A DNA stretch of 64,000 nucleotides from Octopus vulgaris (GCA_951406725.2 OX597829.1:28892001-28956000); one strand, 5' to 3'. Shown: positions 24,329-61,798, counted from the stretch's first letter. The notes: generated by a model from the sequence alone, not told the origin. Made by a program: numbers and translations.

Positions 24329-24614
24329 AAACAATTGCAGCGTGGAAGGTGTTTATAAGCCATTTAAGAAACGCACAAAAACCGTTAGATTCACTTCAAC
24401 CTTTAAATTTAATTTGTCAAAATATTTTCATCGCTTTGAGAGAATGGCCTGTTCACTAACAAAACTCCGTGATGCATTAAATTTAAATATTGAAGTGAAT
24501 CTAACGGTTTTTGTGTGTTTCTTAAATGGCTTATGAAAACCTTCCACACTGCAATTGTTTTCGTTCCAGCACACGTTCTCAGATCAGATCACTTGCTATT
24601 CAAATACATCTCTG
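24329..24614. mobile_element. Foldback element family F, copy 1 (85-bp inverted arms, 62-nt spacer, unpaired tail)
   Basis: Arms 24329-24413 and 24476-24560; homologous over its full length to 35385-35671 in opposite orientation; (TA)n flanks. Confidence 0.85.
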
Positions 24615-24631
24615 TAATATATATATATTCA

Positions 24632-24820
24632 ACAGTATCAGTCTAAAGTAGTGAGTAGGTATAAGCAAACTTTAGGTTAGTTAAATATAATGCTGTAGCA
24701 ATATAATGGTTTCACATCTTTTTACCACAAGATAAAATTTTTTTCCCCATGGTCAAAATAGTGAATTTGCCTTTAGAAGTTGAAATATGTCACAAACATA
24801 TTTTAACTAACCTAAAGTTC
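24632..24820. mobile_element. Tc1/mariner-like MITE fragment (second copy ~58135-58270)
   Basis: Inverted aactttaggttagttaaa / tttaactaacctaaagtt; starts cagtatcagt; the other copy ends actgataatactg-TA. Confidence 0.5.
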
Positions 24821-24892
24821 ACACACACACACACACATACATGTGCATGTGTGTGTGTTTATATATATATGTGTGTGTTAATATATATATGC

Positions 24893-25179
24893 TGAGACCG
24901 TGGGACAAGTCCGACCAAGGTTACTTATGGAAGACCAGCAGTCGCCCATGCATACCAGCCTCCCCTCTCCGCACCACCATTGTTATCCAAGGGAAAGGTA
25001 AAGGCCGATACAGCTTGGCACCTGTGACATCACAACTCATTTCTACAGATGAGTTAATTGGAGCAACGTGAAATAAAGTGTCTTGCTCAAGGACACAACA
25101 TGCATCCCAGTCGAGGATTCGAACTCACAACCTCATGATCGTAAGCTCAACACTCTAACCACTGAGCCATACGCCTTCA
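24893..25179 (-). mobile_element. tRNA-derived SINE family B (CORE-like gtgtccttgagcaagacact)
   Basis: A box tggctcagtgg, B box gttcgaatcc; homologous to 32196-32538 and 42169-42479. Confidence 0.85.
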
Positions 25180-57539: not shown

Positions 57540-57960
57540 CAAGGAGAAAAGTGCCGATCCTCAAATCTATAGCCACCAGGCAGAGAAAACTGATTTCCTT
57601 GCCTGGTTAAAGGAGAGTAGTGGGGCAATCATTATGATGAACTTGACCAATAACCAGATCCATTTCTGTTCAACAGAATTCCAAAAATCCACAATGATTG
57701 CATGCAAAACAGTTTCATCATTCCACACACATCTCAGATCGGCCTGTCTTTCAGTACTTCCATACGTGTAGAGCTTATTTTCGCTTGTCTGAAAATTTTT
57801 GGAAGTTATTCATTGTAGTCCCTGGTCTGAAGGTCCTCTGGAACAGAAGTAGCCACTTTGTTTCATTGATGTACAGAGCTTCCCCAAGCTTCCTTGTCAC
57901 TGCTTCTTTATAAATTGCTACAGAGAGATTTCCACAGATCACATTGGTCAAATAGTAGAT
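57540..57960 (-). mobile_element. L1/Tx1 LINE C-terminal (zf-RVT region) relic
   Basis: Minus strand LFQRTFRPGTTMNNFQK..ALHV..ETVLHA resembles the post-RT CCHC region of Tx1-like elements. Confidence 0.45.
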
Positions 57961-60011
57961 GACAATGAGAACCTGATGACATTTGTAATGGCAGTCTACC
58001 AGCACAAATCAGTCAACGTTGTTGACTGCATTTTAGTTAAAGCCACAAAGTTAATTAGATCTGACCAGAGTTATCTCTCTTTGGTATTTTCCATTGATAA
58101 TGGCTGAAGAGCTAGAGACATCGATGGACAGATATGGTGTTTTACACCTTTTTTACCATAAGAGAGAATTTTTTCCTCCACGGCAACTGCAGTAAATTTG
58201 TCTTTAGCAGTTGAAATATGTCACAAATATTTTAACTAACCTAAACTCTACTTAGCACTGATAATACTGTAATATATATATTACATAACTCACATACAAC
58301 ACGCAACATTCACTTTCAGTCTACCAAATCCATTCCCAAAGCATTGGTTGGTCTGGGGCGATATTGAAAAATACACCTGCCTAAGGTGCTATGCAGTGGC
58401 ACTGAACTTAAAACCATGTTGTCAAGAGATGAAACCAAACTTCTTAACCACAGCCACATCTGTGTCTACTGTAAGCTCTTATTATTTACTACTACAAAGA
58501 TTGGTTAACTGATAGAATTGCTAGTGTGCCAGACAAAAATGCTAAGCAGCATTTCCTCCAACTCAAGTTCAAATTCTGTCAGGGTCAGCTTTGCCTTATC
58601 ATTTTGGGATCTATGAAATAAAGTACCAGTTAATTACTAGGGTTGATGTAATTGACTAATCTCTCCTCCAAAATTTCAGGTCATGTGCCTTTATTTACTA
58701 ACCTCTAAGGCAGTGAGCTGGCGGGATCAACAGTGCATTGGACAAATTGCTCAGCAGCATTTCTTTTGGTTTTATATTCTGAGTTCAAATCCCACCAAGG
58801 TCAACTTTACCTTTTATCCTTTTGGAGTTAATGAAATATATAAAAAAAAAATTGGTTGTGCACCAAGCTCTAATGTTTGCTTTGACATTGTTTCTACAGC
58901 TGGATGCCCTTCCAAAATGCCAGCCACTTTACGGTGTGTACTGGGTGACTTTTTTTTTCGTGGCACCTACCTCAGTGATATCACCAAGTACCTACAAGAC
59001 AAGACCCTTCAAATGAGCAGAGGCATAGTATAGAAGGATATGTGAGTATGATAGAGAAACCGGAGCAGGTGTCTTTGCACTCTGGAAAGAAAGAGAGATA
59101 AGGTCAAGGTACAAGGTGAATATGAAAGGGAGAATAGGATAGAGAAACAGAAAAGGTATTGTATTTGTAATTTTTTGCTTACACCACTGTTGCCATTGTG
59201 GTGGTGGTGGTGGCAGTTGTTATGGTGGTGTTGATGTTGGTGTGTAATTCACCACCTGTACCAAATCTTCTGGTTTCCACCAAGGGGAAGCTGCTTATTT
59301 TCCTCTTTTTTATTTTATTTTTTTCTCTCTTCCCAACTGCAACGGTCTCTTGTTACACAGATTCTCTTGCCTTGCCCTCATCCTGATGACGAAGGTACTC
59401 AAAGGATTTTGCTGTCCATAAAGCATGAGAAAAAGGAAACAGGTGGGTTTGTGAGAGTGTTTTTGAGCATTTTTGAAGGAGGGTTGCTTTTGTTTGTTTG
59501 TCTGTGGTGGTGGGGGTGGGGTGGGGGTGATGGTGGTGTTGGTGGTGGTGGTGGTGACAGAACTGTTTCACAGGGATCTTAATATTAATTTCCATTGTTG
59601 TTGTCTTCCACCTCCTCCTCTTCTTCATTCTCTCCCTTCTTCTCTTCCTCCTCCTTCCCTTGTTTTCCTTCTTCTCCTCCTCCTCCTCCACTTGTTCTCC
59701 TTCTCCTCCACTTGTTTTCCTTCTCCCCCACTTGTTCTCCTTCTCATCCTCCTCCTCTTCCTTCTTCTTGGTAATACTGCCACAGTTGTTTATACTTCTG
59801 TTGTTCTTGTTATTGTTATCATTGCAGTGTTGTTGCTGTGTGTTTCTTACTGTTTTTCCTCCCATGCTTTTCTGCTGTTCCTTATCATTGCAGCAGCTGT
59901 AATACTGCCTTCGTTGATAGTTTGGCCAGTAGTGGAACGAACTGGCTGCCATCGAAGAAGTAACAGAGGTGAACACAAGAAGAAATGCTGCTAAATATCT
60001 TGTCCAATGTG

Positions 60012-60425
60012 CTCTTTTACTCTTTTACTCTTTTACTTGTTTCAGTCATTTGACTGTGGCCATGCTGGAGCACCGCCTTTAATCGAGCAACTCGACTCCG
60101 GGACTTATTCTTTTGTAAGCCCAGTACTTATTCTATCGGTCTCTTTTGCTGAACCGCTAAGTAACGGGGACATAAACACACCAGCATCGGTTGTCAAGCA
60201 ATGCTAGGGGGACAAACACACACACATACATATATATATATATATATATATATACATATATACGACGGGCTTCTTTTCAGTTTCCGTCTACCAAATCCAC
60301 TCACAAGGCTTTGGTCGGCCTGAGGCTATAGTAGAAGACACTTGCCTAAGGTGCCATGCAGTGGGACTGAACCCGGAACCATGTGGTTGGTAAACAAGCT
60401 ACTTACCACACAGCCACTCCTGTGC
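60012..60425 (-). mobile_element. SINE family A, full length, young
   Basis: Very close to the apparent family consensus. Confidence 0.9.
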
Positions 60426-61530
60426 TGTGATTTTTTCCACCTTACTCCTGTTAATCTTTTTGATACCAACCCACCTGAAACTGCCTTTGCTTCTACGTTA
60501 CAAATTCTGTTTTAAAAGGATCTAAATTAAAACTTTCTATCAAGATTTCATTTTAATTTGTATTCCAAATAATGACAAAGTTATTTTACAGCATACTTCA
60601 TAATTTACAAAATTAAGTGACACAATGTAATTGACATAACTACTCCTGGGTAAGACTATAAAAACTGCGCCCTTCTGTCAAGCCATGTCAAGCCAGTGTG
60701 GAAGAAAAGGCTCAACAAACCAGTATAATCTTAAGCTATTTTTTGGTGGAGAGAATATGTTGAGGCCTTTGTGCTGCAGTGGACTGAACATGGGACATCC
60801 AATCCAAAAATGCTTGGCCTAAATACTCTACCAGTTATATGTCCAAACTGACCAGATTCTGCCTGTCACACCAACCCTAAGATGTATCATTCTGAAAAAT
60901 AAATGATAACAATATGGTTGGCATTTGGGAAGGCATCCAGTCTTAAAAATCATACCAAAACTGATCTCACCTGTGCTCGTACCATGTAAAAAAAAACACT
61001 CAGTCCACTCTGCTGGGTGGTTGGTATTAGGAAGGGTACCCAGCTATAAAAACCATGCCAAAACAGACGCAGAAGCCTGGTATAGTCTTCTACCTGGCTG
61101 GCTCCTGTAAAACCATCCAATCCATGCCAGTATGGAAGACAGACATTAAATGATGATGATGATAATCATCATCAACATATCAGAATCTCTCTCTCAATCT
61201 TAAAGTCAGTGCATGCTGAGAGGAATATGGTAAAAAAGGGTTAATTGCTTCTAATGTTGGCATAAGGCCATCAATCTCAAGGGCAGAGGATTAATTAGTT
61301 AGAAAGTAAAAAGGGAAAAAATAGAAAGCTTTGACAATGCAGAAAGTTTAATAAAATCTTTTTACCTTCTTTGATATTACAATGCTTGAAGCAAACACTC
61401 TTACTAATAGTTGCAAATAAAACACATGTTGGTCTATGTGAAACGGTATATAAATTAATGAATGAAAGCTAATGCTATGCAACTTCAGAGTAATCCTTAT
61501 TATTAATATTGTTAATATATATATATATAC

Positions 61531-61798
61531 ATCTGTAAATTAATATGTGACAATTATTCAATAGCCAAGATAAAACTCTGAATTTCGGATGCTGAAGTGG
61601 AAATCCACAACACTATCTCTTCGGTAATCTGGCCAGATAACTGAAGAGATGGTGTTGTGGATTTCCACTTCGGCATCCGAAACTCAGAGTTTTATCTTGG
61701 CTATTGAATAATTGTCACATATTAATTTACAGATAAATTTCCTCTATTTACATAATATTGAGGTCTCTTTCTTTTGTTATCTTACCGTTTTTACCAAT
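61531..61798 (+). mobile_element. Foldback PLE-like element: 204-bp loopless palindrome (61531-61734) plus tail
   Basis: Centre tgg|cca at 61632/61633; 5 arm mismatches; tail ends ttttaccaa then (TA)n; (TA)n upstream. Confidence 0.85.
61632..61701 (+). ncRNA. Putative type-I hammerhead ribozyme (mirror copy on minus strand 61564-61633 has CCGAAGA core)
   Basis: Stem I gccagataa/ttatct(t)ggc, CTGAAGA (61641-61647), imperfect stem II gatg..catc, GAAA (61679-61682), palindromic stem III actc-a-gagt, predicted cleavage after GUU (61691). Confidence 0.65.

Follow-up and report, generated by a model that had tools for sequence, protein, structure and literature searches.

Short head-to-head insertions in an Octopus vulgaris locus are terminal repeats of coding Penelope-like elements, probably built from two cDNAs

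Known insertions of Penelope-like elements with an endonuclease (EN+ PLEs) combine a head-to-head copy of the pseudo-long terminal repeat (pLTR), a tail at one end, 5' truncation, AT-rich or (TA)n targets, short target-site duplications (TSDs) and a hammerhead ribozyme in the pLTR. The layout, its one-sided tail, the (TA)n bias and the pLTR hammerheads are already set out in the parts of PMC8557442, PMC3846280 and PMC4209133 used here, the last of which also mentions pairs of hammerheads on opposite strands, separated by 100-700 bp. We analysed a window of 64,000 nucleotides (nt) from Octopus vulgaris (GCA_951406725.2 OX597829.1:28892001-28956000), in which four foldback units of this kind form three families that we called B (24329-24618 and 35387-35671), D (48194-48644) and C (61531-61798), and we searched the genome (2.8 Gb, 227 contigs) for further copies. 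All three families are pLTR ends of protein-coding PLEs, and there is no separate ribozyme element. Each unit is a very short insertion in which two such ends lie head to head, likely derived from two separately primed cDNAs on sense mRNA, a reading to which we give a probability of roughly 78%. Compared with known EN+ PLE insertions, the tails are longer (~54 nt in B, 60-64 nt in C and ~150 nt in D vs 30-40 nt) and the copies extremely short, and in many B copies the 5' end lies at a single site and carries an extra G.

The part of PMC11167929 used here, on Poseidon of Anolis carolinensis (PAc), showed that a PLE protein nicks each target strand and extends both, that two internal reverse transcriptase (RT) start sites bound the tail, and that the hammerhead is not needed for insertion in vitro. 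The octopus families resemble PAc in a frame that starts in or just after the pLTR unit, in two starts bounding the tail and in AT-rich targets; the family D tail also ends in an AC-rich stretch, as in PAc. However, PAc belongs to another clade and its evidence is biochemical, whereas that for the octopus families is genomic. Metazoan non-LTR retrozymes, as presented in the sections consulted of bioRxiv 10.64898/2026.07.22.740005 (see also PMC7229834), share the short size, the type I hammerhead and the link to PLEs. In contrast to the units analysed here, which are head-to-head ends of coding elements, they are head-to-tail tandem, non-coding families with a hammerhead in each unit, and we rejected this classification.

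Coding PLEs that share the tails, which the initial annotation had proposed to look for, were found elsewhere in the genome for all three families, with RT and GIY-YIG endonuclease (EN) frames. In full-length copies, the tail of the unit runs on into the reading frame. Three family C loci show the order RT, CSCRNKKLC linker, EN, 3' untranslated region (UTR) and unit, with broken frames; Pfam recognized the GIY-YIG domain of this family only at E=0.005, and it detected no RT in any of the three families. For family D, a 762-aa RT-EN frame is present at one locus (L099), and at two others (L102 and L042) the tail continues into an N-terminal frame with SDKT and RIRW. The family D protein has RT-EN motifs and 271 homologues, the best named relative being from Argonauta; it gave no Pfam match and no hits in a sequence search of the PDB. 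Family B has 1025 open codons at L378 (Pfam GIY-YIG, E=1.8e-5), and at L375 it forms a partial tandem in which the frame, interrupted by one stop, starts inside the unit. Such partial tandems forming pLTRs were seen for B (L375) and D (L102) but not for C. Unit positions are counted from +1, the A at which 5' ends pile up. Family B copies selected by the sequence just upstream of +1 (1,080 matches) have a repeat-rich UTR of ~950 nt followed by a GIY-YIG frame. Exact matches to the tails gave at least 1,504 (B), 716 (D) and 90 (C) copies. The families agree with EN+ PLEs in that the unit is connected to a frame encoding both RT and GIY-YIG, and in having an inverted 5'-truncated copy and a one-sided tail.

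Since all three families are pLTR ends of coding PLEs, the view that they are separate SINE-sized (short interspersed nuclear element) non-autonomous families is wrong. By their linkage in the genome, rather than by Repbase or Dfam entries, the units are plain PLE ends, the outcome that the initial annotation itself had named as undoing its claim of novelty. Its broader proposal, that of insertions made by PLEs and bearing PLE-type hammerheads and an inverted copy, was correct. That these are SINE-sized RNAs mobilized in trans is contradicted by the coding masters, but it agrees with the many short copies with a fixed 5' end, chiefly in family B (47/90). Some of these minis may re-amplify in trans.

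Motifs and (TA)n bias of families C and D match the clade diagnostics given in the available part of PMC8557442, and both families therefore probably belong to the Hydra clade. Family D has the DKT and R-W motifs (SDKT, RIRW), CxxC and CxH, and family C has CxxC and the CxCx5C linker. As in the Hydra-clade PLEs of that paper, including Hydra-1_Obim, C and D combine a C-terminal GIY-YIG domain, (TA)n insertion and CxxC near a conserved E. The stem III and cut site of family C resemble those listed for Penelope-3_HM in File S2 of that paper, whereas neither the C nor the D motif matches the Hydra-1_oBim row, and the usual family C core, CCGAAGA, contrasts with the CTGA present in every row of that file. 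Six diagnostic strings had no relevant match in the supplement of PMC8557442, as far as it was accessible. Two points count against the clade call: it rests on motifs and not on a tree with references, and family D has no Hydra CxCx5C linker but an N/S-rich insert in its place. At L099 (P0001, residues about 350-640), N/S-rich inserts occupy the thumb-to-EN region and the CxCx5C finger is lost; similar inserts are described in the part of PMC3846280 used. Family D thus keeps its (TA)n targeting (30/30) without the linker finger proposed to guide it. Long near-perfect inverted repeats also lie at or near family C and D copies, with ~3.9-kb arms at L105 and ~1.3-kb arms at L100.

Family B appears to be of Neptune/Nematis type, the two not being separated by these motifs, because of its CQSNCAVC linker located before VYQIKC...YIGET, which agrees with the CX2-5CxxC pattern of C-terminal EN proteins. 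It resembles Neptune/Nematis-type PLEs in its single RT-EN frame, CX3CxxC linker, GIY-YIG domain with inner cysteines and histidines, and partial tandem and inverted forms; it differs by a G3-C8 hammerhead core and by older copies that are mostly at non-TA sites with TSDs. At L378 (G000:C25:44298500-44307500), which holds the 1025-codon frame, it is the 5' inverted copy that bears the tail, and the 3' direct copy has none. One family B element is adjoined by a further PLE with Penelope/Poseidon-like RT and GIY-YIG (L345:1927-4365), and three insertions (L143, L154 and L164) have long flanks in common, which indicates amplification inside another repeat or a duplication.

In the window, four foldbacks lie between TA runs, where the initial annotation had placed them. 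The first family B copy consists of a tail-less inverted copy (24329-24477, minus strand, +3 to +149), in which a hammerhead-like motif has decayed (GTGAACA core at 24450-24456, with a broken stem II), and a 5'-truncated direct copy (24476-24618, plus strand, +65 to about +205) that ends in a one-sided tail of ~54 nt. The second has its 5'-truncated direct copy at 35387-35524 (minus strand, +65 to +202, tail at 35387-35439) and its tail-less inverted copy at 35523-35671 (plus strand, +3 to +149). The arms of these two foldbacks (24329-24560 and 35440-35671) are 85 nt long and 93% identical. The family D unit, from a probable Hydra-clade PLE, has a tail-less inverted copy (48194-48250, minus strand, +182 to +238) and a direct copy (48247-48644, plus strand, -10 to +388) with an initiator-like TCAGTT (48256-48261, plus strand), a hammerhead and a ~150-nt tail ending TTTTACCAAA; its arms (48194-48250 vs the 48436-48492 region) are 57 nt long and 96% identical. 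That of family C, with the same probable affiliation, has a tail-less inverted copy (61531-61635, minus strand, +4 to +108), which holds a second hammerhead (core CCGAAGA at 61618-61624), and a direct copy (61630-61798, plus strand, +4 to +172) with a ~64-nt tail ending TTTTACCAA; its arms (61531-61734) span 102 nt at 95% identity.

These boundaries support the common tail terminus initially noted for two families, as both Hydra-type tails (C and D) finish in TTTTACCAA. The single plan proposed for all families describes the order of parts in D but not in C or B. Thus, the inverted arm does not correspond to the sequence 3' of the motif, since the family C arm at 61531 spans the entire motif; the motif of the two B units is confined to the inverted arm, where it runs antisense to the tail, and their 62-bp loop therefore represents the 5' portion of that arm's copy. 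The families were described as (TA)n-embedded, which is accurate for C and D, whereas B is mostly outside (TA)n. Absence of TSDs holds inside TA runs but not at the non-TA sites of family B, 21/51 of which have 9-15-bp duplications, and 'non-coding' applies to the window copies but not to the families, which include coding elements.

We determined the architecture of copies in samples chosen by the tail only, namely the first 90 listed of 1,504 (B), the first 30 of 716 (D) and the first 30 of 90 (C). Foldbacks, counted when the outer end of the arm falls in a set window, make up 37/90 (B), 22/30 (D) and 20/30 (C), or 45/90 for B without the outer-end rule. The outer ends of the inverted arms cluster at about +149 (B), +236 (D) and +112 (C), leaving one-sided tails, and two 3' end points are therefore fixed across copies, the tail start and the tail end. 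In contrast, the inner ends vary and are uncorrelated with the direct starts (Spearman p 0.88, 0.29 and 0.39 for B, C and D), and the arm junctions often overlap by 1-10 nt. Arm stagger was scored for pairs at most 20 nt apart, one arm being called longer when it reaches >10 nt further 5'. The inverted arm is the longer in 13/28 (B), 7/15 (C) and 12/19 (D) pairs, 32/62 overall, and the direct copy in 6, 4 and 4 of them, respectively. Both arms belong to one subfamily in all 15 callable D foldbacks of 20 examined, with no chimeric arms among them, which fits self-priming and two-cDNA models alike; four apparent mixed pairs were rejected, as the subfamilies are alike there or one reference is longer.

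The 3' flank has (TA)5 in 19/90 (B), 30/30 (D) and 29/30 (C) copies. For the TSD test of family B we used 78 simple loci, 12 complex ones being dropped, of which 51 are outside TA runs. The 21/51 sites with 9-15-bp duplications compare with 6/400 swapped pairs; they comprise 14/24 foldback and 7/27 solo sites, and 14 of the 21 duplications enclose the whole foldback. The same test is uninformative for family C, as swapped pairs scored equally often (3/7 vs 14/42). Targets may have shifted within family B, with TA flanks in 16/19 copies of the young loop type vs 19/48 of the older type, in samples that were unevenly drawn.

Direct copies start at most 15 nt from +1 in 47/90 (B), 9/30 (C) and 3/30 (D) cases, and 3, 4 and 6 copies of the same samples extend further upstream. 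The pile-up sites are located upstream of the hammerhead motif, ~15-25 nt before the core in two families and ~95 nt in the remaining one. All three read TCAG with the break between C and A, which we take to resemble an animal initiator. Family B copies that read through the site have C at -1 in 42/46 cases. Among the first 100 of 581 matches without that C, a hand count gave 77 G, 13 A and 10 T at -1, whereas a control CAG six bases on gave 17 G, 25 A and 58 T among the first 100 of 270 matches (p=6e-18). For 20 retrieved copies with the G, the bases further upstream come from the flank or from the second arm, and none continues into the template. The extra G is found on the sense 5' end of tail-bearing and tail-less copies alike. 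In assembled contigs of a public run of another organism, loose ends occur at the same base in 56 contigs, with a weak consensus ending in G (agreement 0.43); for family D, such contigs gave no pile-up. RTs can copy a 5' cap into an extra G. The family B pile-up is thus likely a capped transcription start and the extra G a copied cap, which would indicate a sense mRNA template. A splice acceptor as the 5' limit of family B was rejected, as 22 solo and 20 G copies have no common first exon upstream, although an exon of 1-3 nt is possible.

The window contains two type I minimal hammerheads with canonical cores, one in family D (48349-48428, plus strand; CTGAAGA at 48352, 12-bp stem II, GAAA at 48414, predicted cut after 48425) and one in family C (61633-61701, plus strand; CTGAAGA at 61641, predicted cut after 61691). 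The claim of hammerhead motifs in this DNA thus holds, a strict descriptor finding exactly these two cores vs a mean of 0.06 per shuffled window (50 shuffles). Allowing any Watson-Crick 3-8 pair adds a predicted type I minimal hammerhead in family B (35534-35590, plus strand; G3-C8 core GTGAACA at 35544-35550, GAAA at 35571, predicted cut after 35580), with one hit per 20 shuffled windows and none in 3000 shuffled units; this relaxed descriptor was written after the motif was seen, and its control shows rarity rather than unbiased discovery. The motif of the 24329 copy is decayed and fails it. An Rfam scan of the window gave no hammerhead among 150 of its 200 rows, in which microsatellite (miRNA) matches dominate.

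The expected CUGANGA/GAAA core is conserved in family D, where it is intact in 29/30 copies, but not in the other two families: C has mostly CCGA (U4C), with CUGA in 6/30, and B has GUGAACA, in which the 3-8 pair is kept and the letters are not. As most family C copies and the inverted arm in the window read CCGA, the canonical T at 61641 likely reflects CpG decay; U4C reduces hammerhead activity in vitro (PMC3088659, in the part used). The family B motif runs stem I, GUGAACA, an unpaired G, a 5-bp stem II, GAAA, a palindromic AAUAUU (stem III), U and stem I. Stems I and II, the unpaired base before stem II, G10.1-C11.1 and the palindromic stem III are traits of PLE hammerheads, so the predicted ribozyme corresponds to the minimal form in the consulted part of PMC4209133, save for G3-C8 instead of C3-G8. 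Folding of a young copy gave stems I and II (z=-3.5; z=-1.2 for the window copy). Just 12/50 copies of sufficient length pass the descriptor. Decay is equal in the core positions and elsewhere in the unit (0.049 vs 0.049), so no sign of selection after insertion was seen. Copies are too alike for stem covariation, only one-sided changes being seen, and no core variant at ≥5% appeared in four public runs. In the parts of the papers used, C3G/G8C is a known partial rescue (PMC11167929, PMC8495972) and U3-A8 is reported as a natural 3-8 swap (PMC3088659, PMC4209133); the literature searched, mostly excluding subscription papers, gave no natural G3-C8 PLE hammerhead, no cap-derived G for PLEs and no twin-priming account for them.

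The two-cDNA reading builds on observations of family identity, linkage to RT and GIY-YIG, fixed 3' ends, variable inner ends, TSDs and the family B pile-up with its G. Full-length elements carry the unit at both ends of their transcript region. The RT-endonuclease would nick both target strands, and two separate cDNAs would be primed on the sense mRNA of the element, one beginning at the tail end and the other at the tail start; these two fixed ends would be the counterparts of the two internal RT start sites of the anole Poseidon. Each cDNA would stop on its own, at the latest at the 5' end of the RNA, which the pile-up site and the extra G would mark as transcription start and copied cap. 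Minis of 170-390 nt would result where priming uses the 5' unit of the RNA, and long copies where it uses the 3' unit. The two cDNAs would then be joined by microhomology inside a staggered cut, and the hammerheads would ride along in the pLTR without setting the ends.

Several observations weigh against this reading. Palindrome centres can be lost after insertion, which would mimic staggered arms, and, judged by eye, microhomology to the target or to the opposite arm can account for the G in ~8/20 contexts. The extra G is weak and only suggestive in family D (~5/8 non-C cases) and absent in family C (1/2 non-C cases). None of the four window copies shows it, two stopping at +3, one at +4 and one starting at -10. 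Finally, the family B pile-up site resembles a 3' splice site, with a branch-like CTAAC, pyrimidines and AG.

The inverted arm might instead arise by self-priming, as first suggested, with one cDNA folding back (or an antisense template being used, as proposed in the part of PMC3846280 consulted) and later deletions making the arms uneven. Junction overlaps of 1-10 nt, near-perfect palindromes such as that at 61531 and arms from one subfamily would all fit. However, fold-back of a tail-bearing cDNA cannot give an arm that reaches further 5', and a tail-less cDNA cannot give the tail, so that the simple form does not produce the 32/62 adjacent foldbacks with this shape unless later deletions are invoked. 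We favour two separately primed cDNAs for this reason, and with the G on the sense 5' end of both kinds of copies, self-priming seems unlikely. It is a slightly poorer prospect still that the short units are non-autonomous SINE- or retrozyme-like elements with their own internal promoter, mobilized in trans by PLE proteins. Only 3/90 tail-sampled B copies extend >15 nt upstream of +1 while 47/90 begin there, exact B tail matches number at least 1,504, and the parts of the sources used report an internal promoter in Penelope (PMC2377424), pLTRs that can act in trans (PMC3846280) and non-autonomous PLE derivatives (PMC8557442; bioRxiv 10.64898/2026.07.22.740005). Yet long copies extending upstream exist in both B subtypes and in all three families, some per family reaching a coding frame; each copy has its own junctions, and the foldback is thus not passed on whole; the units in the window do not form the tandem arrays that define non-LTR retrozymes; and the equal decay of the B core and the rest of the unit speaks against it as well. 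We also rejected an independent MRC1-like non-autonomous PLE, which has its own lineage, a fixed structure and no coding master, given the variable junctions and the coding masters of all three families.

That the hammerhead cut sets the insertion ends, or that the foldback arises at the cut end as originally suggested, is very improbable. In both B window copies, the direct arm begins at +65, just a few bases beyond the predicted cut, and this junction region recurs in 29 of the 30 top BLAST matches to that shape, but this sample was chosen by the shape of the query itself. A reading of family B as a SINE with a fixed junction and no hammerhead (29/30 first copies) was rejected as query bias after tail-only sampling. 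In the tail-only sample, ~5/90 direct copies start at most 10 nt from the cut, every family has its pile-up upstream of the motif, junctions vary freely, and hammerhead mutants leave insertion in vitro unchanged (PMC11167929, part used). Short non-coding units with inverted ends and TA flanks also recall the terminal inverted repeats (TIRs) of a DNA transposon, i.e. a miniature inverted-repeat transposable element (MITE) with TA duplications. We consider this virtually impossible and rejected it: instead of symmetric fixed TIRs and a fixed short TSD, the units have a tail at one end, inner junctions that vary, TSDs of 9-15 bp and continuity with RT frames.

Other features of the window include decayed RT/EN relics at 20548-21665 (plus strand) and 28661-30038 (minus strand), which show tblastn similarity to the Hydra-type protein P0001 (E as low as 1e-10) and have no DNA-level match to the bodies of families B, C or D. 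The initial annotation had called such relics Neptune-type, but the Neptune-type protein has no match in the window at E<1e-3. A large inverted pair surrounds a TA run at 25039-25984 (262 nt, 97%; 167 nt, 96%) and includes a segment that is tRNA-like and looks like a SINE, as well as a CTGATGA box that no GAAA follows. This pair may have come from a further foldback insertion or from inverted duplication in place.

The units belong to an ordinary class, of which they represent three apparently unlisted families; they matter as a record of mechanism and not as a new system, the layout being published. Less ordinary are the G3-C8 core, the extra G and the arms staggered in both directions. The last two give direct predictions for the existing in vitro system, and searches based on CUGANGA would miss PLE hammerheads if G3-C8 is the core of a family with open frames. 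We tentatively propose, as a possibility short of even odds, that family B is a recently active Neptune-type PLE with a working natural G3-C8 hammerhead, a core not otherwise known than as an engineered rescue mutant, and that the 200-nt stubs, which number in the thousands, represent complete cDNAs of the 5' end of its capped sense mRNA, primed at two internal sites on opposite target strands. In the parts used, PMC3846280 left open whether sense or antisense RNA is copied and how head-to-head ends originate, and PMC8557442 and PMC11167929 called the later insertion steps unresolved. If true, our proposal would settle the question of sense vs antisense template and the origin of the inverted ends of PLEs, and some stubs may multiply as PLE-dependent SINEs.

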